Positions 18,571 to 56,499 of a stretch of 64,000 nucleotides of DNA are shown piece by piece. The translations under genes and the position numbers were made by a program. The first letter of the stretch is position 1, and each line of letters opens with the position of its first letter. This DNA comes from an uncultured cyanobacterium (GTDB taxonomy: Bacteria > Cyanobacteriota > Cyanobacteriia > Phormidesmidales > Phormidesmidaceae), in the NCBI GenBank assembly GCA_963793265.1, contig CAWBZI010000005.1, positions 224,001 to 288,000 on the forward strand, written 5' to 3'. Under the pieces are notes generated by a model that saw nothing but the letters and a program-made list of their open reading frames with translations, had not been told where the DNA came from and did not search any database.

Positions 18571-18752
18571 GTTGGAGTACATCCCTCAGCATTCGACAAT
18601 TGTTTTTTCACGATTCAAGCCTGTTTACGCAGGCTTTTTTGATCTATATTTTCAAGTGTACTGATTCGCATACGTGTCTACACGCGACAGGAGGAAGAGA
18701 GCGCTGCTATTGTATGGTTACAAGCAAATCATTCATCGTCGGATCTCGACTC

Positions 18753-19307
18753 ATGACTTCAGAACAGATGCTTTTGGACAAATGGCATAGTCTTCCCGAA
18801 CTACAGCAAAAGATGGTACTGGATTTTGTGTCGATGCTCTATAACCGAAAGCCGCCGCTTGCTGAGAGTTCACAACCTACGTCCATATCCAAGCAAATTG
18901 CAGATAGCAATCTACCACCGCTAGAAATTCCTGAGTCTGAGCGACAGCGTGTATTAAAACGTATCAAGCAGGCGCAGCGTGAAAGACCTGAGATGCTGAA
19001 GCGGATGAAGCGGCGACAGCAGAAGGGATGGGAAGCAGCTCGCAGGATTGCAAAAATGCTAAAGCAAGATTATGGCGCAGAGCGCGTCGTTTTGTTCGGC
19101 TCACTGTTGAATCACGAATACATGCATGATTGTTCAGATATTGATATTGCTGTTTGGGGTCTTGATAACCGTTTGGATGACAGAGCATGGATAGCAGCCA
19201 ATTATATTCTTAGCCCTTATGAATTTCCGCCGCTAGATTTAGTGCCAATTGAGAAAGCTTATCCAGAGATTAGAGAAGTCATCGAAACGCAGGGCGTAGA
19301 ACTGTGA
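18753..19307 (+). CDS. Minimal nucleotidyltransferase (MntA-type antitoxin) with an N-terminal DUF2281-like helix
   Basis: LFGS-x10-DIDIAV motif; its stop overlaps the start of the downstream HEPN gene (GTGA). Confidence 0.85.
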   Translation: MTSEQMLLDKWHSLPELQQKMVLDFVSMLYNRKPPLAESSQPTSISKQIADSNLPPLEIPESERQRVLKRIKQAQRERPEMLKRMKRRQQKGWEAARRIAKMLKQDYGAERVVLFGSLLNHEYMHDCSDIDIAVWGLDNRLDDRAWIAANYILSPYEFPPLDLVPIEKAYPEIREVIETQGVEL

Positions 19308-19641
19308 ACCATGAGCAGCTTTTTCATCGGATACAAGTTGAGCTATGCAAGATGGAACGGGCTGTGCAAGAGACTGATGAGGCGATCGCAGCCCTAAGTA
19401 TTGTTACAACACCGGGCGCATACAACACCATTGTAGGTGGCATCTCTTTGAACATACACGGCTTCTACACGGGAGTTGAGCGGATTCTGCGTGCTTAGCA
19501 TTCCGTCATGTTGTGCGGAATAACTACACCCATGCTCTAGATGTCGATAAGGTGCTACAAAACGCCTCGCAATTACCTGATTGCTTCTATCGATTCACGG
19601 CAGATTGTTTGGCGTTTCAACAAGCGCTTACTAAGAAGTGA
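19304..19641 (+). pseudogene. HepT-like HEPN ribonuclease toxin with internal deletion and frameshift
   Basis: N-terminal part ...LNIHGFYTGVERILRA* stops at 19498. A different frame from about 19495 reads LAFRHVVRNNYTHALDVDKV...ALTKK* (stop 19641). The usual middle segment is missing. Confidence 0.82.
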
Positions 19642-23033: not shown

Positions 23034-26000
23034 CTACAGCGCGAATATCTGTTTTAGTAGGCCGCCTTTGCCTGCTTTTCCGGTCACTAGCTGGTGCATC
23101 AGCTCATATTGCCACTGATACAAAGCGCTTTGTGAATGGGTAGCAAGGCTGCGAAGCTTACTAATTTGGTCGAGGCTAGAGGCTGCCTGACGACCTTTTC
23201 GGCTGAAGCATTTACTCATAGAATGCTCCCATTGGTCAAAAAACTGAGTTAGCAAGGCCCGATCCGCTTCTGAAACTTGCCCATTCGCCTTCACTTTCAC
23301 AACACTCACGCTTGAGTTGGCGAGCGTTGGCGTCGCGTCTGATGATGAAAACTGCTTTGCTAGCTGTTCGGATGAGAAGGAGCGCCACTGGTCGGCTAGT
23401 AGCGGTGGCAGCATGTCTAAGCTGTACGGCTGATGGTCGATTAAGGGTATGCCGCCGATAGTCGTGATGCCTCGACCGCGCAAAAAGACGCTGAGATCTT
23501 TTATGAAGGGTGTGAGGGCTTCGCGCACGATGACTGAGCTGAGGCGATCGCCCGCTTCCGAATAATCCACGATATGAGCATCTGGCCCACTTGTATGGCT
23601 CGTTCGATAGTGGTTATAAGCAGCTTGCAAATCTTTTTGACTATCGGGCTGTAGGCAAGACCAAACGCCATCGCCTACGTCAGCTCGGACTGCGGCTTTT
23701 AGTGCCACATCATCAGAAACAGCCTTTGTCTGCACCTGCATTTGCTCTATATGGGCTTCTTTGCCCTGAATTGTATCTTCTTGAGCCGCTAGCTCAGTTT
23801 TTAAGGTGGCAAACGCCTGCTGCTTTTCGACAGAAAGCTGCGCAATCTTTTCTTCTAGCAGCTCAATTTGCGCCTTCATCATGACGATCTGCGCGTCCTT
23901 TTCTTCTAGCAGCTCATCTTTTTTAATCAATAGCTGCGTTTTTTGCTTTACTTCCAAGGCGCTCAGTCCAGCGCGAATGAGATTGAAGTATTTTGCATTG
24001 GTAATATCTACTGGCGTAGGCGGTTGCTCTGGTAAGTACAAAAAGCCCTGGCGATCGCTCATCTGCACCAATAGCAAATGGCCTTCATTATTTTGAATAC
24101 TCAGCCGTTGCTCGCCGCTTTCTCTTTCTAGCATTCCTTCGTAGCGCCGACTGCTGTGATAAAACTCTACGCGCAATGAATCTTCTTCAATAAGATACGG
24201 AGGAATAGGCGTTGCTACGTCAGCGCGATCTGTTGGAGAACGTTTGAGAGAAGACTTCGCTTGCAATGAAGAAGATTCATCGAGAGATGCTTTGTTCTCT
24301 AACTCTTTTTGAAGATTAAGCGCGATTTCTTTGGCGACTTTCGCGGGCGTGCTGATAGTCTCCGTAGCCGTCTTTTGAGCTAGATCGGCTGTTTTCTCTT
24401 TAGCTATCTTCGCGATATCTAAAGTGTCTACTGCGTTTGCCGACCAGGGACGAATGCCATCATCTGGTTGCTCATTGACTTGCGCCGCGCGAACGCCAAC
24501 TAGCTCCAGCTCTACATTGCTTTGGCCGCGCCACTCGTTGAGTCGGAGCTTATAGGCAATGTCAAGATCTCTGGGGAGCGGATAGTATTGCCCCCATCGC
24601 CAGGCGATCGCCTTCATCACCACCGGCTCTGCTTCTCCCTCAGCCAAATGCTTTAGCGTCAGCTTCAAGTGACTGTTGGTTTTACCAATCACTTTTTGCT
24701 CAACCACTGTCGCATTTGCCGTCCAAAACACCGGGTCAGGGTTTTCGATACCACAGGGATGAATGCGATCAATTTGCGAATATAGCTCTAGATTGGCATC
24801 AGCAAGTTCAGCTTCAACATCAGCAGTCACCAGTGGCTTAAGATGTTCAGGCTGAAGATGCTTGCAGGCAAAGTTTTTAAGCCGCGCTTTTACCTGTCGC
24901 AGCTTATTTACATCAAAAGAAAAGCCACCTGCCGCCCGATGTCCGCCATATCTATCTAGCAAATCGTCGCAAAACTGCAGCGCTTCAAACACATTGAATT
25001 CAGGAATGCTGCGAGCCGATCCTCGAATTTCCTTTTGAGCTTTATCTTCGTAGGTGCCAATAAAAACCGGCACGCCATACCGCTCTACCAGGCGAGAAGC
25101 CACAATGCCAATCACGCCATGGTGCCACTCCGGCTGAACCACCACCAGCACTCGCTCTTGGCTCAGCTCAAGCAAGCCTTGCGCCTGCTGATCTTCAACC
25201 CAGTCCACAGCCTGCGCTTCAATAACTTCGCACATTTGGCGACGCAGCTTATTAGCTTCTTCGCACTGCATTGCCCGCTGCAAGGCCACGCCAATATCGT
25301 CCGTTGTCAGCAGATCAATCACAATTTGCGGATCGGCAATCCGGCCTACAGCGTTAATCCGAGGCCCTAGTCGAAACCCAATCGCCTCAGGCTTTAGCGC
25401 ACTATCTTCGCTCAGGCCCGCGACTTCAATCAGCGCCTGCACACCCGGAATCTGAGATTTGGGCAGCAGCTTCAGGCCGCGCTTTACCCAGCGCCGATTC
25501 ACGCCTGTAAGCGGAGCCAAATCGGCAATGGTGCCCAGCGTGAAGAGGGCGAGCAAAGTTGCCGTCAGGTCTTGCATTTTGTCTAGGCGCTGAGCCAGAC
25601 ACACGGCCAAAATGTAAGCGACGCCGACACCTGCAACCCCTCTGTAGGGAGAGTCTTCTCGAATGAGCTTGGGGTTGAGAATGGCGTTGGCGGGCGGGAT
25701 TCTTTGAGGGACTTCGTGGTGGTCGGTGAGGATGACGGTGAGGCCGAGTTCGCGGGCACGGGCGACGGGATCGTAGGCGGCGATGCCGTTGTCAACGGTG
25801 AGGATGATGGAGCCGCCGCTGGCGTGGAATTCTTCGACGATGCGTGTGTTGATGCCATAGCCTTCGTCCATTCTGCTGGGGATGGCGTAGTCTACCTGGC
25901 CTTTGAGGTAGCGTAGGCTGCGCATGAGCAAAGCTGTGCTGGTCATGCCGTCGGCGTCGTAGTCGCCGCAGATGAGTATTTTTCTTTGGGCTGCGATCGC

Positions 26001-26270
26001 CTCCACCAGCAAATCCAGAGTTTTGTGGAGATCTGGGAACTCGTCTAGTGGGGAAGGCAACAGCAGCGTTTCAGGGTCTAGAAATTCCCAGGCTTGTTCA
26101 GGGGTGTAGATACCTCGGTTGATCAAGACCTGGGAGAGTAGCGGAGAAAGGGCGGTGGCCTGAGAAATTTGCTGGGCCTGGGCCTTTTGCGCAGGAAAAA
26201 TTTGCCACCGTTGAGGCGGGATCTGTCGTTTGGTGGGCCGTTCAGTTTTGGGGACGGGCTTGTCGGGCAC
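23034..26270 (-). CDS. recJ: ssDNA exonuclease RecJ with a long C-terminal extension (coiled coil plus HEPN-like domain)
   Basis: GDYDADG, TVDNG, TDHH, GTIAD, PRINAVGR, GGHRAAGG and OB fold in the first ~595 aa, then ~480 extra aa. Confidence 0.95.
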   Translation of the reverse strand: MPDKPVPKTERPTKRQIPPQRWQIFPAQKAQAQQISQATALSPLLSQVLINRGIYTPEQAWEFLDPETLLLPSPLDEFPDLHKTLDLLVEAIAAQRKILICGDYDADGMTSTALLMRSLRYLKGQVDYAIPSRMDEGYGINTRIVEEFHASGGSIILTVDNGIAAYDPVARARELGLTVILTDHHEVPQRIPPANAILNPKLIREDSPYRGVAGVGVAYILAVCLAQRLDKMQDLTATLLALFTLGTIADLAPLTGVNRRWVKRGLKLLPKSQIPGVQALIEVAGLSEDSALKPEAIGFRLGPRINAVGRIADPQIVIDLLTTDDIGVALQRAMQCEEANKLRRQMCEVIEAQAVDWVEDQQAQGLLELSQERVLVVVQPEWHHGVIGIVASRLVERYGVPVFIGTYEDKAQKEIRGSARSIPEFNVFEALQFCDDLLDRYGGHRAAGGFSFDVNKLRQVKARLKNFACKHLQPEHLKPLVTADVEAELADANLELYSQIDRIHPCGIENPDPVFWTANATVVEQKVIGKTNSHLKLTLKHLAEGEAEPVVMKAIAWRWGQYYPLPRDLDIAYKLRLNEWRGQSNVELELVGVRAAQVNEQPDDGIRPWSANAVDTLDIAKIAKEKTADLAQKTATETISTPAKVAKEIALNLQKELENKASLDESSSLQAKSSLKRSPTDRADVATPIPPYLIEEDSLRVEFYHSSRRYEGMLERESGEQRLSIQNNEGHLLLVQMSDRQGFLYLPEQPPTPVDITNAKYFNLIRAGLSALEVKQKTQLLIKKDELLEEKDAQIVMMKAQIELLEEKIAQLSVEKQQAFATLKTELAAQEDTIQGKEAHIEQMQVQTKAVSDDVALKAAVRADVGDGVWSCLQPDSQKDLQAAYNHYRTSHTSGPDAHIVDYSEAGDRLSSVIVREALTPFIKDLSVFLRGRGITTIGGIPLIDHQPYSLDMLPPLLADQWRSFSSEQLAKQFSSSDATPTLANSSVSVVKVKANGQVSEADRALLTQFFDQWEHSMSKCFSRKGRQAASSLDQISKLRSLATHSQSALYQWQYELMHQLVTGKAGKGGLLKQIFAL

Positions 26271-26997: not shown

Positions 26998-29799
26998 CTA
27001 TATTCTCGACGTTTTGCGGGTAGGGCGTTTGCGCTTGAGGAAGATGAGAGCGATCGCACCTACTGCAATACTCAACACCTGACCCGGCTCAGGCACAGAC
27101 GCCGCCAGTGGATTACCCGGATTAGTCAAGTCGTCTTGACCGTCTTCAACTTCTCGATTGAATCTATCCTCACCAGCTTCAGCCGCTTTTAACAGCTCTC
27201 TTTGTCGTTCGTCTACGAGCACCAGCATAGAGGAGTAAGGCGTGACAATGCCTGTCCGTTTGGCGATAGCATGCACCGCATCTAGAGCAGAAACTTGAGT
27301 CGTATCGAGCGTGCGGCTTTGTTGGTAGATGAGCTGACGAGCAGCAATCGCTTCCAAAGGCTTCTGTTCCTCATTCTTCCGAGGTTCCGTAGTCTGTTCT
27401 TCTTTTGTATCAGACTTAATCTTCCAGGTATAGCCATCCAATGCAATTTCATCTTTCGAGGCGATCGCAATTCTCTGTAAAGTCGAAGTCACCGATGTAT
27501 CTACACCACCCTGACTCGCCTGCAACTTTTGCAGCAGTCCATCCTCATACGCTGACGGCACTTGCCCGCCAACGTGCACCATCCACAGCGGCGCACCTAT
27601 GTCGGGCAGCTCCGCTTCACTTTTAGCCAGCTCATAAGAGCCTTCATCTGTGAGTAGTAAAATCGCATCATAGGATTTGTTCTCTCGCAGCGTCGCAAAC
27701 TGTTGCAGCATTTCTGCTGGCTGCAAGCTACCGTAAAATGAAATATCCTGTATGTCTATTATCTGAGTCGCTAGGGCTGCGGGTTGATTGAAGGCTGTGA
27801 GGTAGAAGTCCAGCGTGTTTTTGTTTGCGATCGCACCCAGTTCATCAACAGCCTGCTTCAGCCCCTCTGAATGCTCGCCCATGCTATAGGAGCTATCGAT
27901 AATGACCGCTAGTTTTTGGTCGGTAAGCAGTGTCTTGTCTTGTTTTGTAATTGGCTCTGCTGTGACGTTATAGCCCTCAGCTAGCTTAACCGTATGCGCT
28001 TTTGGCTGAGCCTTTTTAGCAGGTAAAGCTGCTTCAAACCATTCTACTTCAGTCAGAGAAACCCTCTTTTTTCCTCTAGTATGAGCCGTCTCATCCGTCC
28101 AAAAGATATTGCGTTTTTCAGTAAGCTGAGGCAGCGGCCACCCACCGTTTTGCTGCATCACTTGATAGGTCATTACTAAATGCAGTTTGCCGGGCGTACG
28201 TCTGGTTGTTCTATCAGGTGCATCTGCAGACAGTGCTGCCGCTGGAATCGGAAACACGCGCAGGCGATACTGTCTTGGCCCCACTTGCTCTAGCAGCGCC
28301 GGGTCAGTCGCCGCCTGAAACTTGGCGCGCTCCACTTCACCGTTGTACACCTGCTGCGCTGCGCCCCGAGGCGATACCACAAAAGGAAACAGGTTTATGT
28401 TGTCATCATCACCTAGCCACAGCCCTGTAATAGCTGCGCTTTCAGGCAGTGAAAAGGAATAAAAGATCTCCTGGTCTTCAGTCGTGGGATTCTCGTACTC
28501 TTCATGAATTTCTACTGTCGCCCAGTCGCCTCGTTCAGTCACCGAGACATTTTGACTAGCTAAACGAACAACCTTTTGATCTAGATTCAGCAGTCCTGCT
28601 TTAGTTTCGTCGCGGTTGGCTGTCGCTCGCAGCGCCTCACGAATAGCCGGGCGCTCTGCCTTTTGGATGGGCACATCAAAAAACTGTGCGTAGAGTTCGG
28701 CAGATCTTTCTACGTCGCGGTCTGCACCTTTGTACAAAAAGGGTGAGAGCAGTCCGTTATGGATGTTTTGAAAGAACCATGCGCTGCTTGCGGGCATGTT
28801 GAAAGCGTTGTCGTAAAGCTCTACGAGCGCGGCGCTTCGTGACCATGGGCTCAAGTAGCGATAGCGGTGTAAGTAGGCGTTTGTGAGTCCGGCTTTGATC
28901 ACGTCTGCATTTTGTAGCTGCTGCTGGCGATCACCTGTCAATGCTACCGGCTCATTTCCCGCTACAAATTCAACGCTGCCCGCCTCAGTCAACATCCTAA
29001 AAGCGTCTACCTGAGGCTGCTGGTTCTGCAAGCTGATAAACAACAACGTGCTGATAGCAACTGTAGAACCCGTCACTATCCAGCTCTTTGACTGGCTGTA
29101 TTGGCTACCAAAGGCCGTGCGAATTCTAGCCCAGGCTCGCACATAAAAGTTGACTAGCATGTAAGGCATAGACACGAAAACCAACAGGGTTATACCCGAT
29201 AAAAACCCCATTATCCATACAAGTGGATGCACTATCATCAAGATATTACTGATCCATCTAAAGCTAAAGAGTTCAGCCGCTAGCGCCCGCCCAGAAATGA
29301 ATACAACCGGTAGCGTGTAGAGCAGTAAGAGTGACCCAGCATACAGACCCGCTAGCAATATGATGCTGTGGCCGAGCATTTGCGCCATTGCCAGGCGCGG
29401 GCGATAGGCTGAGTAGCCTGTAAGAAGCTCGATGGCAAAAATTGCGATCGCGACCACCCCCAGTCCCAACGTAAAACCGCTAGCCACCGTCAGCTCACGA
29501 ATCAGAAACATCCGCAGCAAGCACAGTGTAAACAGCGGTGCTTCTACGCCATAGAACAGTCGCATCAGCAGAATAGGATACCTGCGCAATCGCAAAGCAC
29601 CGCCCAGCGTGCACACCAATGGCACAATCATCAATGCCATAAAGCTCACGGTAAAAGTGGGATCTATGTCCCCACTGCGCGCCGCTTGCCATAAGTCAGA
29701 TCCAAACTCTGGCAAGAACCAAAGATACATCAGACCGATAAAGGTCAAATTCCAAACCCAGAACACTAGATGAGAGCAGATGTGAAGAAGTTTCTTCAT
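26998..29799 (-). CDS. TIGR02921-type PEP-CTERM integral membrane protein (TM region + VIT + vWA-like)
   Basis: N-terminal TM bundle (FWVWNLTF, LFYGVEAP); VIT motifs (YSFSLPESAAITGLWLG, DPALLEQVGPRQYRLRVFPIP); MIDAS-like DSSYS; C-terminal VPEP-TM-KRKR. Confidence 0.88.
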   Translation of the reverse strand: MKKLLHICSHLVFWVWNLTFIGLMYLWFLPEFGSDLWQAARSGDIDPTFTVSFMALMIVPLVCTLGGALRLRRYPILLMRLFYGVEAPLFTLCLLRMFLIRELTVASGFTLGLGVVAIAIFAIELLTGYSAYRPRLAMAQMLGHSIILLAGLYAGSLLLLYTLPVVFISGRALAAELFSFRWISNILMIVHPLVWIMGFLSGITLLVFVSMPYMLVNFYVRAWARIRTAFGSQYSQSKSWIVTGSTVAISTLLFISLQNQQPQVDAFRMLTEAGSVEFVAGNEPVALTGDRQQQLQNADVIKAGLTNAYLHRYRYLSPWSRSAALVELYDNAFNMPASSAWFFQNIHNGLLSPFLYKGADRDVERSAELYAQFFDVPIQKAERPAIREALRATANRDETKAGLLNLDQKVVRLASQNVSVTERGDWATVEIHEEYENPTTEDQEIFYSFSLPESAAITGLWLGDDDNINLFPFVVSPRGAAQQVYNGEVERAKFQAATDPALLEQVGPRQYRLRVFPIPAAALSADAPDRTTRRTPGKLHLVMTYQVMQQNGGWPLPQLTEKRNIFWTDETAHTRGKKRVSLTEVEWFEAALPAKKAQPKAHTVKLAEGYNVTAEPITKQDKTLLTDQKLAVIIDSSYSMGEHSEGLKQAVDELGAIANKNTLDFYLTAFNQPAALATQIIDIQDISFYGSLQPAEMLQQFATLRENKSYDAILLLTDEGSYELAKSEAELPDIGAPLWMVHVGGQVPSAYEDGLLQKLQASQGGVDTSVTSTLQRIAIASKDEIALDGYTWKIKSDTKEEQTTEPRKNEEQKPLEAIAARQLIYQQSRTLDTTQVSALDAVHAIAKRTGIVTPYSSMLVLVDERQRELLKAAEAGEDRFNREVEDGQDDLTNPGNPLAASVPEPGQVLSIAVGAIALIFLKRKRPTRKTSRI

Positions 29800-54411: not shown

Positions 54412-56499
54412 ATGTCTTCTCCTCAGCCAACCAACTTCTTCAATGACCTAGATCGCGTTGCCAAGGTGCGTCATCAAATGGCAGACGATCTAGCCACCAT
54501 GGTAGAAATCGTCACCGATTCAGAGGCAGTAGGCGCTGAGCAGTCAGGTCAAATGGGGCTCACGCAAACCATTGAAGACATGGAGAGCGCGAGTAGAAAC
54601 TTGCGGCAGGGCGTGTTTCGGCTGCTGGTGCTAGGCGACATGAAACGCGGTAAAAGTACTTTCCTTAATGCGCTAGTAGGAGAGAACTTATTGCCTAGTG
54701 ACGTTAATCCCTGCACGGCACTGCTGACTATTTTGCGGTACGGCCCTGAGAAGAAGATTACTGTTCATTTTCTAGACAATAAAGCGCCTGAGACACTGGA
54801 CTTTGTGACCTTCAAGCAGCGCTATACTATCGATCCCGCAGAGGCAAAGCGGTTAGAAGAGAAAGAAGAGCTGGCGTTTCCAAATGTGAGCCATGCGGTC
54901 GCTGAGTATCCGCTACCGCTATTAGAGAAAGGCGTGGAGATTGTTGATAGTCCTGGGCTAAACGATACAGAAGCTCGGAATGCGCTTTCTTTAGGCTATA
55001 TCAATAGCTGTCACGCTATTTTGTTTGTACTTAGGGCAACGCAGCCTTGCACACTTGCCGAGCGGCGCTATCTAGAGACTTATATTAAAGGGCGTGGCCT
55101 GTCGGTATTCTTTTTGATCAACGCTTGGGATCAGGTGAAAGAGAGTTTGCTTGATCCAGAGGATGAGGCTGAGGTGGCTGAGGCTGAGGCGAAGCTGCAT
55201 AAGCTGTTTCGGACGCATTTGGAAGAGTATTGTCGGATAGATGGTGTAGATTGCTATCCCGAAAGAGTGTTTGCGATTTCGGCTTTGCAGGCTTTGAGGC
55301 AGCGGATGAAGTCGCCGGATGCGAGTTTGGAAGAGAGCTTAGCGGGTACGGGGCTGGGGCCGTTTGTGCAGTCGCTTAATCTGTTTTTGACACAGGAGCG
55401 GGCGATCGCTGAACTGCGACAGGCCAGAACGTTAGGCCGAGAAACACGTGATCGCTTTCAAGAGGCAGTCGCTCGCCGTGTGCCTTTGCTCAATCAGGGC
55501 GTGGATGAGCTGAAGCAGCGGATTGAGTCGGTTGCCCCTGAGTTTGAGCAGTTAGGGAGTATTCGCGATCGCTTCCGGGATGACATTAGAGAAATGCGCG
55601 ATCGCAAAGCTCACACGATTGCAACCTCACTTAAAACCTATCTCTACAAGCTAGAAGACACGTTTGAAGAAGACTTTTTGCGCTATCAGCCCGAGCTGGG
55701 ATTAAGCGACTTCATTTCTAGTCAGGGCAGAGAGGCATTTGCAAGCAAGCTCAAAAAAGCCTTTGAACAGTATGCAAACGTGATGTTTTTTCGCTGGGTG
55801 AAAACAGCCGAAGCGGAAATGAAAGAATCCTTTGTAGAGCTTTCTAAAGAAGCAGAACAGTACGGCGCATCCTACCAAAAGATTACGGAGCGCATGACTG
55901 AAAAGCTGACTGGGAATATGCGTATAGACATGCCTAAGCTCAGCGGTGATGATGAGTCTTCGCCTAGCTGGGTGAAGTGGGCGATGGGCCTGATGTTTTT
56001 ATCAACCGGCAACGTGGCGGGCGTAGCAATGACGGCTGTCGGATTTGACTGGCAGAGTATTTTTATCAATATTTTAGCGGTAAGCAGCCTGACGATTGCG
56101 GCCTCTACACTTTTGGGCATCGCGTTAGGGCCAATCGTGCTGATTATTGCGAGCTTTGGCTTTGGCGCTTTGCAGATAGATCGCGCTCGTAAGGAGCTGA
56201 CAAAGGCGATGAAGAAAGAGCTGGTGAAGCACTTGCCTAAGCTGGCCGAGCAGCAACAGCAGCCTGTGTATGAAGGGGTGCAGGGGTGCTTTGATAGGTA
56301 TGAGCAGCAGGTGATGGAGCGGATTGAACAGGATATTAGCGATCGCAAAGCTGAGCTAGACAATCTGCTGGCTCAAAAAGAATCTCGTGAAATTGATCGC
56401 GATGCTGAAGTGGCTCGATTGCAAAGCGCTGATGCTGGCATTAAAGCGGCTAGCGATCGCATAGACTCCGCTTATCAACAGGCGCTCAGCATTTCATAG
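54412..56499 (+). CDS. Bacterial dynamin-like protein (BDLP1-type)
   Basis: GDMKRGKST (G1), DSPG (G3), NAWD (G4), hydrophobic paddle, helical stalk. Confidence 0.95.
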   Translation: MSSPQPTNFFNDLDRVAKVRHQMADDLATMVEIVTDSEAVGAEQSGQMGLTQTIEDMESASRNLRQGVFRLLVLGDMKRGKSTFLNALVGENLLPSDVNPCTALLTILRYGPEKKITVHFLDNKAPETLDFVTFKQRYTIDPAEAKRLEEKEELAFPNVSHAVAEYPLPLLEKGVEIVDSPGLNDTEARNALSLGYINSCHAILFVLRATQPCTLAERRYLETYIKGRGLSVFFLINAWDQVKESLLDPEDEAEVAEAEAKLHKLFRTHLEEYCRIDGVDCYPERVFAISALQALRQRMKSPDASLEESLAGTGLGPFVQSLNLFLTQERAIAELRQARTLGRETRDRFQEAVARRVPLLNQGVDELKQRIESVAPEFEQLGSIRDRFRDDIREMRDRKAHTIATSLKTYLYKLEDTFEEDFLRYQPELGLSDFISSQGREAFASKLKKAFEQYANVMFFRWVKTAEAEMKESFVELSKEAEQYGASYQKITERMTEKLTGNMRIDMPKLSGDDESSPSWVKWAMGLMFLSTGNVAGVAMTAVGFDWQSIFINILAVSSLTIAASTLLGIALGPIVLIIASFGFGALQIDRARKELTKAMKKELVKHLPKLAEQQQQPVYEGVQGCFDRYEQQVMERIEQDISDRKAELDNLLAQKESREIDRDAEVARLQSADAGIKAASDRIDSAYQQALSIS

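Follow-up and report, generated by a model that had tools for sequence, protein, structure and literature searches.

The closest described counterparts of the RecJ-linked domain reported here are the HEPN toxins RnlA and LsoA (RNase LS, PF19034). In RnlA, the residues R255, E258, R318 and H323 are each essential (PMC8266594). The polar residue that follows the HEPN Arg is "mostly N, D or H" (PMC3710099, section 6), and according to the same census, HEPN domains that lack the motif might work by nucleic acid binding or through a different His. A coiled coil adjoining a HEPN effector has been described for the CnuE-type effectors of CoCoNuT systems (PMC11090510). As for RecJ itself, the Deinococcus radiodurans enzyme has an extra C-terminal domain that binds the SSB tail (PMC4846377), and RecJcy has been linked to plasmid restriction (PMC10653904).

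The cyanobacterial locus resembles each of these systems in part. RnlA and LsoA are the best structural matches across the whole domain, and RnlA shares with the RecJ-HEPN family a DY motif, a Glu 13 residues later and a C-terminal R-x4-H. RnlA and LsoA have two TBP-like domains, whereas the RecJ-HEPN protein appears to have a polo-box-like domain and a coiled coil instead. Unlike RnlA/LsoA, it was seen without an rnlB-like gene, is joined to a DNA exonuclease and has often lost the motif. The adjoining coiled coil is shared with the CnuE-type effectors, but no McrBC or helicase context was seen at the fusion. An additional C-terminal domain is also found on Deinococcus/Thermus RecJ, but there three helices form the binding site and a HEPN domain is absent; the searches made here detected no homology. 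The original prediction had supposed the fusion to be undescribed, and it was indeed not found in the open literature searched. The main text of the HEPN census (PMC3710099) has no occurrence of RecJ or DHH, though its supplements could list such a fusion, and the accessible part of the CoCoNuT paper (PMC11090510) has none of RecJ. An undescribed HEPN family is identified here.

Architecture of the recJ fusion gene

The window, i.e., the whole stretch of 64,000 nucleotides that was analysed, contains a recJ gene whose features are as follows.

23034..26270, minus strand: recJ fusion gene, 1078-aa ORF (RecJ core, linker, beta domain, coiled coil, HEPN)
24501..26270, minus strand: RecJ core (DHH, DHHA1, OB), residues 1-590, with catalytic motifs in place
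24183..24500, minus strand: low-complexity linker, poorly conserved; its length across 128 fused homologues is 18-291 aa, with a median of 112
23946..24182, minus strand: beta domain of polo-box-like fold, about residues 697-775, from predicted structure and homologue comparison
23727..23945, minus strand: coiled coil, about residues 776-848 (~73 aa), from sequence and profile matches to coiled-coil proteins
23037..23717, minus strand: RnlA/LsoA-like HEPN-fold domain, residues 852-1078 (~225 aa), from model and structure search
23520..23567, minus strand: DYS...xRE segment DYSEAGDRLSSVIVRE, residues 902-917, with the codon of Val915 (Glu in the family) at 23526-23528
23220..23231, minus strand: W-x-H-P motif, near-invariant in the family, with Pro1017 changed to Ser in the window copy
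23136..23153, minus strand: R-x4-H motif, R1040-H1045, with Ser1041 where the family has Asn

The original prediction had a complete RecJ core followed by a linker, a small beta-rich domain, a coiled-coil segment and, last, a helical domain; every part was borne out. The core scores 469.3 bits against TIGR00644 (curated cut-off 396.9) and contains the Pfam domains DHH (97-247), DHHA1 (373-467) and OB (484-590). All five RecJ catalytic motifs (DxDxDG, VDNG, DHH, GTIAD and GGH) were located. The gene product belongs to the RecJ family and would act as the cell's ordinary RecJ 5'-3' ssDNA exonuclease. The peptides singled out earlier were likewise found where they had been placed: DYSEAGDRLSSVIVRE in the helical domain, KKDELLEEKDAQI in the coiled coil (23886-23924) and LRSLATH as residues 1039-1045 (23136-23156, minus strand).

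The entire fusion stretch is contained in one contig of run X1. Since contigs of two studies show identical codons for Val915 and Ser1041, these residues are not assembly errors, with the proviso that the window itself may derive from the best-matching run. The RecJ tail is present once in the source genome, and promoter and terminator scans gave chance-level results only.

The neighbourhood of the window gene is of a housekeeping kind and syntenic in relatives, and no conserved antitoxin gene was found adjacent to it or to the free genes examined. A nearby MNT gene was considered as an antitoxin but discarded, since a decayed partner of its own accompanies it and it does not lie beside recJ in the four relatives checked. 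The MNT nucleotidyltransferase (18600-19641, plus strand; Polbeta match below cut-off) is followed within this span by the apparently decayed, frame-broken partner at 19274-19641, presumably HepT-like. A Pepco domain gene (PF24393; 19711-20109, plus strand) lies between the MNT pair and a DUF4349 gene. Upstream of recJ, at 26998-29799 on the minus strand, is a gene for a membrane protein with a VIT domain and what we take to be a PEP-CTERM-like end.

The C-terminal HEPN-fold domain

Residues 852-1078 were modelled with AlphaFold2 from a 112-row alignment (pLDDT 93.7, pTM 0.91). When 48,161 chains were searched with this model, LsoA (Z 9.2, rmsd 3.7, 144 aligned) and two entries of RnlA (Z 9.2, rmsd 3.5, 141 aligned; Z 9.1, rmsd 3.8, 144 aligned) came first, matching across the whole model, ahead of further HEPN entries. 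As the search tool itself warns, a common arrangement of helices can be enough to give helical bundles a Z of about 9. The titles in rows 1, 2, 3, 5, 8 and 10 of the search name HEPN, RnlA or LsoA. Sub-cut-off Pfam matches among 39 members fell on HEPN_Swt1 (7), DUF4145 (4), Abi_2 (2) and HEPN_RiboL-PSP (2), all four HEPN families. Because this run of titles, the sub-cut-off Pfam matches and the R-N-x3-H consensus of the family combine, the predicted all-helical HEPN fold, which had been claimed originally, can be regarded as secure.

The RecJ tail had nothing above cut-off in Pfam, NCBIfam or PADLOC, Foldseek gave no match at E <= 0.001 against the PDB and viral models, PDB sequence searches with the tail returned nothing or coiled coils only, and the ESM Atlas search yielded no usable lead. 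RnlA was not recovered by sequence (hhalign probability 0.1, no HMM match, PF19034 absent from the Pfam matches), and because a sequence-level match is absent, the domain is said to resemble the RnlA-type HEPN but is not placed in the RnlA family. The position equivalent to RnlA R255 (912) is F, A, S or L rather than Arg. Homodimer prediction of the HEPN domain scored 0.00 in both runs, which is evidence neither way.

The polo-box-like domain

The model of residues 697-787 shows six strands followed by a helix (pLDDT 93.9), and polo-box domains account for eight of the ten top structural rows. Both PLK4 PB3 (Z 8.7, rmsd 2.9, 76 aligned), which has the same six-stranded sheet and helix, and PLK2 (Z 8.8, rmsd 4.2, 86 aligned) are among them. 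The beta domain differs from polo boxes in being bacterial and single-copy with 5-12% identity; this is a likeness of fold only and may be analogy. No polo-box match was found in Pfam or by PDB sequence search, and the domain has no Pfam name. Its identification with the TBP domain of RnlA was considered and found unsupported, RnlA being absent from the 50 structural rows listed; one sub-cut-off TBP-TOTE match occurred in 89 members.

This unannotated domain is widespread. Of 401 cyanobacterial genomes searched, 239 contain it, in most cases where a RecJ-sized frame ends. Cyanobacterial RecJ usually has it as C-terminal tail, and free beta-coil-HEPN proteins begin with it. At 659 aa, the RecJ of S. 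elongatus (Synpcc7942_1886) has the length of the beta-only type, whereas the window RecJ is longer by about 300 residues, which make up the coil and HEPN parts. The domain is probably a partner-binding module, and by analogy with the Deinococcus enzyme it may bind SSB or another partner.

The domain also occurs in other company. It starts the beta-coil-acidic proteins of Microcoleus, whose genes follow a DUF488 gene at L008, L009, L014 and L083 and are possibly remnants of the DUF488/DuOB/beta-coil-HEPN run at L163 described below. In three genomes (L139, L140 and L141) it forms part of proteins of about 470 aa with a dynamin/LeoA-like GTPase; one of these three beta-GTPases was scanned and matches PADLOC LeoA, and the gene at L140 adjoins a Rep_1 gene. 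In P0187, the beta domain and the first part of the coil come after a TIR domain. Three f30 RecJs (L129, L130, L132) have a different C-terminal extension of ~180-190 aa that replaces the beta domain.

Distribution and states of the tail

The tail is matched by 120 fusion-length proteins, from sources that include Phormidesmis, Leptothoe, Halomicronema, Sphaerothrix and Drouetiella. Fusion of this tail to RecJ thus extends over a large group of filamentous cyanobacteria. With the tail profile, 115 of 401 genomes match, although some of these matches, including 6/6 in family f3, consist of beta domain and coil only. By family, the counts are 45/46 in the window's own family, 36/40 in f6, 5/5 in f43 and 20/46 in f30. 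A second order was searched as well and gave matches in 14 of 401 genomes. Most cyanobacterial RecJs are without the coil-HEPN part. The free protein P0131, whose motif is intact, was not matched by any phage, plasmid or viral contig, in a search whose viral scan detects close relatives only.

A tree of 96 RecJ cores places the 57 fused rows together in one clade of 74 (SH-aLRT 99), whose other 17 members are split, truncated or beta-only. In a careful tree made from 47 selected rows, the fused clade has support of 100/99, and the fused P0147 lies outside it. On these RecJ phylogenies, the fusion is old and vertically inherited.

The tail is found in several states. In the second order, a free beta-coil-HEPN gene lies directly behind recJ-beta at L166 and L167, and at L177 a fused gene has the same downstream neighbour as these tandem loci. 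The recJ locus thus changes between a tandem and a fused state, the direction of change being a matter of interpretation. One free gene of this order (L163) ends a DUF488/DUF488/DuOB run that matches the PADLOC candidates PDC-M45B, PDC-M45C and PDC-M45A; the other free genes lie among housekeeping genes and have no conserved small neighbour. Genomes of f30 and f55 that were examined and have a free gene have a RecJ without the beta tail. Reduced forms occur as well. The RecJ nearest to the window RecJ in the core tree (L076) stops after the coil and has no trace of HEPN within 6 kb downstream, and the same truncation is seen through L079 (L076-L079). Elsewhere, recJ is split right after the beta domain and coil-HEPN lies in an overlapping second frame (L060/L074, L069, L070-L072, L073); three genomes that belong to one genus are split alike.

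Active-site residues and selection

Conservation of R and H among homologues, on which the RNase claim had been made to depend, did not hold for the fused proteins. Among 114 rows of close homologues, R1040 is kept in 64, N1041 in 54 and H1045 in 77, while D902, R916, E917, W1014 and H1016 are almost invariant among 120 close homologues. A wider set comprised 228 distinct near-complete domains, i.e., 175 fused, 21 free and 32 of unclear architecture that were left uncounted. Both R and H are kept in 75/175 fused copies vs. 19/21 free beta-coil-HEPN copies. The fused copies divide into 63 with R-N-x3-H, 12 with R-x4-H but no N and 100 in which R or H is missing. R-N-x3-H is present in 19/21 free copies, or in 17/18 without three free rows that are nested inside fused clades and may be cut fragments; it is also present in all 12 further non-fused frames with a readable motif, which are partly the same genes. 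A FastTree tree of 203 HEPN rows, built with the motif columns dropped, calls for at least 22 changes between intact and lost, counts that do not give the direction.

E258 of RnlA lies 13 residues past the D of DY, and the same register leads to position 915 in the RecJ-HEPN family. This equivalence would hold by register from DY rather than by structural alignment. Glu915 is present in 61/63 fused copies with R-N-x3-H, in 21/21 free copies and in 67/100 motif-less copies; of the free copies, only about half retain Glu905. The window copy has R1040 and H1045, but it has Val915, Ser1041 and Ser for Pro1017, and the upstream catalytic acidic residue is probably lacking. Its R1040-H1045 agrees with an R-x4-6-H motif at the end of the penultimate helix. 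By composition, an R-x4-H is expected 0.34 times in the domain, so that the motif is weak evidence by itself; it counts because it aligns to the R-N-x3-H of the family. The residue after the Arg is Ser in the window copy, which is polar, and Asn in intact relatives. Glu905 and Glu917 are also present, and E905-x3-R909 is intact and fits the Ex3[KR] motif. In the HEPN clade of the window copy (15 rows, support 96), the Arg is absent in 13/15 rows and R-N is present in none.

Selection was estimated from 46 within-genus pairs with HEPN dS of 0.05-1.6, which are not independent and none of which includes the window copy. The HEPN dN/dS is 0.033-0.103 in the nine pairs with the full motif on both sides, 0.118-0.210 in the seven mixed pairs and 0.036-0.475 in the 30 pairs that are motif-less on both sides. 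The motif-less HEPN domains of relatives remain under purifying selection, and the comparison of motif-less with full-motif pairs indicates a domain that is relaxed yet constrained after motif loss; a dN/dS below 1 can result from selection for folding alone.

Origin and possible function of the fusion

The reading that we favour, with confidence a little above even, is that a free RnlA-like toxin sharing the tail domain of RecJ was fused to RecJ and repeatedly disarmed, leaving a non-catalytic appendage. The free beta-coil-HEPN protein, with its intact R-N-x3-H, is scattered in cyanobacteria and would be a dimer-activated RNase toxin. The fusion would date from an ancestor shared by at least two families, and the simplest route to it would be recombination of the two beta-domain copies with each other. 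A dimer-activated RNase on a housekeeping enzyme would be risky, and this may be the cause of the repeated change at the catalytic residues. The HEPN fold stayed under selection after the loss in the relatives studied, and the coil-HEPN tail would now most likely be non-catalytic and either dimerise RecJ or hold nucleic acid near it. The window copy, with Val915 and Ser1041, would be a weak or dead RNase. An active RNase attached to RecJ, as originally predicted, suits the ancestor and a part of the relatives but probably not the window protein, because R and H are often lost among fused copies and Val915 stands in the window copy. The free form, behind recJ or in the DUF488 operon, is the better candidate defence RNase.

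If the window copy were instead an active guard RNase, triggered via its coiled coil once RecJ encounters an inhibitor or DNA of a phage, the presence of R and H, the fold shared with anti-phage toxins, the full motif in 63 of 175 fused relatives and the one free form in an operon of PADLOC candidates would be accounted for. We consider this quite unlikely, given the Val915 and Ser1041 of the window copy, the rarity of the Arg and absence of R-N in its clade, a syntenic housekeeping neighbourhood without an antitoxin gene, the absence of a PADLOC match for the domain and an inheritance that is vertical rather than patchy. In another proposal, all fused copies would be active through an alternative site made of D902, R916, E917 and H1016, which are kept in 94-98% of the 100 motif-less copies, and would serve RecJ by trimming RNA or RNA:DNA hybrids. 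An alternative His site has been described for some HEPN families, and RNase LS relatives have been linked to RNA:DNA duplexes (PMC3710099). Nearby Trp, Gly and Pro residues are kept equally well, though, which points to structure, the same four residues are less kept in free copies (81-90%), and dN/dS is higher in most motif-less pairs; we consider this proposal quite unlikely as well.

A further possibility is that the motif-less tail is a functionless passenger, kept only since a misfolded tail would harm RecJ, and in the course of being shed. The truncated genes, the split genes and the absence of the tail from most cyanobacterial RecJs are what such a process would leave behind. A stop codon would, however, be an easy exit, yet whole genera keep the full motif-less domain over dS >1, and the split motif-less pair L070/L072, where the domain is in a separate frame, has a dN/dS of 0.036. 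We regard a passenger as unlikely and retain the disarmed, non-catalytic appendage as the preferred reading. The free intact, tandem, fused intact, fused disarmed, split and truncated forms make a natural series for the domestication of a toxin on a core repair enzyme.

A broader and more speculative proposal, which we hold to be rather unlikely, is that a cyanobacterial defence RNase guards RecJ by means of a copy of RecJ's own polo-box-like tail. The RecJ tail would inhibit the free beta-coil-HEPN protein or compete for its partner, and loss or inhibition of RecJ would lead to active HEPN dimers. Fused copies with the full motif would be one-piece guards, and the disarmed copies would record the cost of autoimmunity. 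The presence of the tail on a LeoA-like GTPase and with a TIR domain is as expected of an integrated decoy. Systems that guard RecBCD follow a comparable logic. Were this proposal true, a housekeeping enzyme would act as an antitoxin, and if the shared tail is the sensor, it would make a bacterial integrated-decoy guard on the RecF pathway.

A second RecJ

Judging from its tail and a core identity of 31% to the second RecJ of the genome, the window RecJ would not be of the RecJcy type, and RecJcy would be a paralogue. The second RecJ (L031; G000:C6:54766-57256, minus strand) is of the RecJcy type by similarity to L131. It lies in two frames with a break near 55878, as in a pseudogene or an assembly error.
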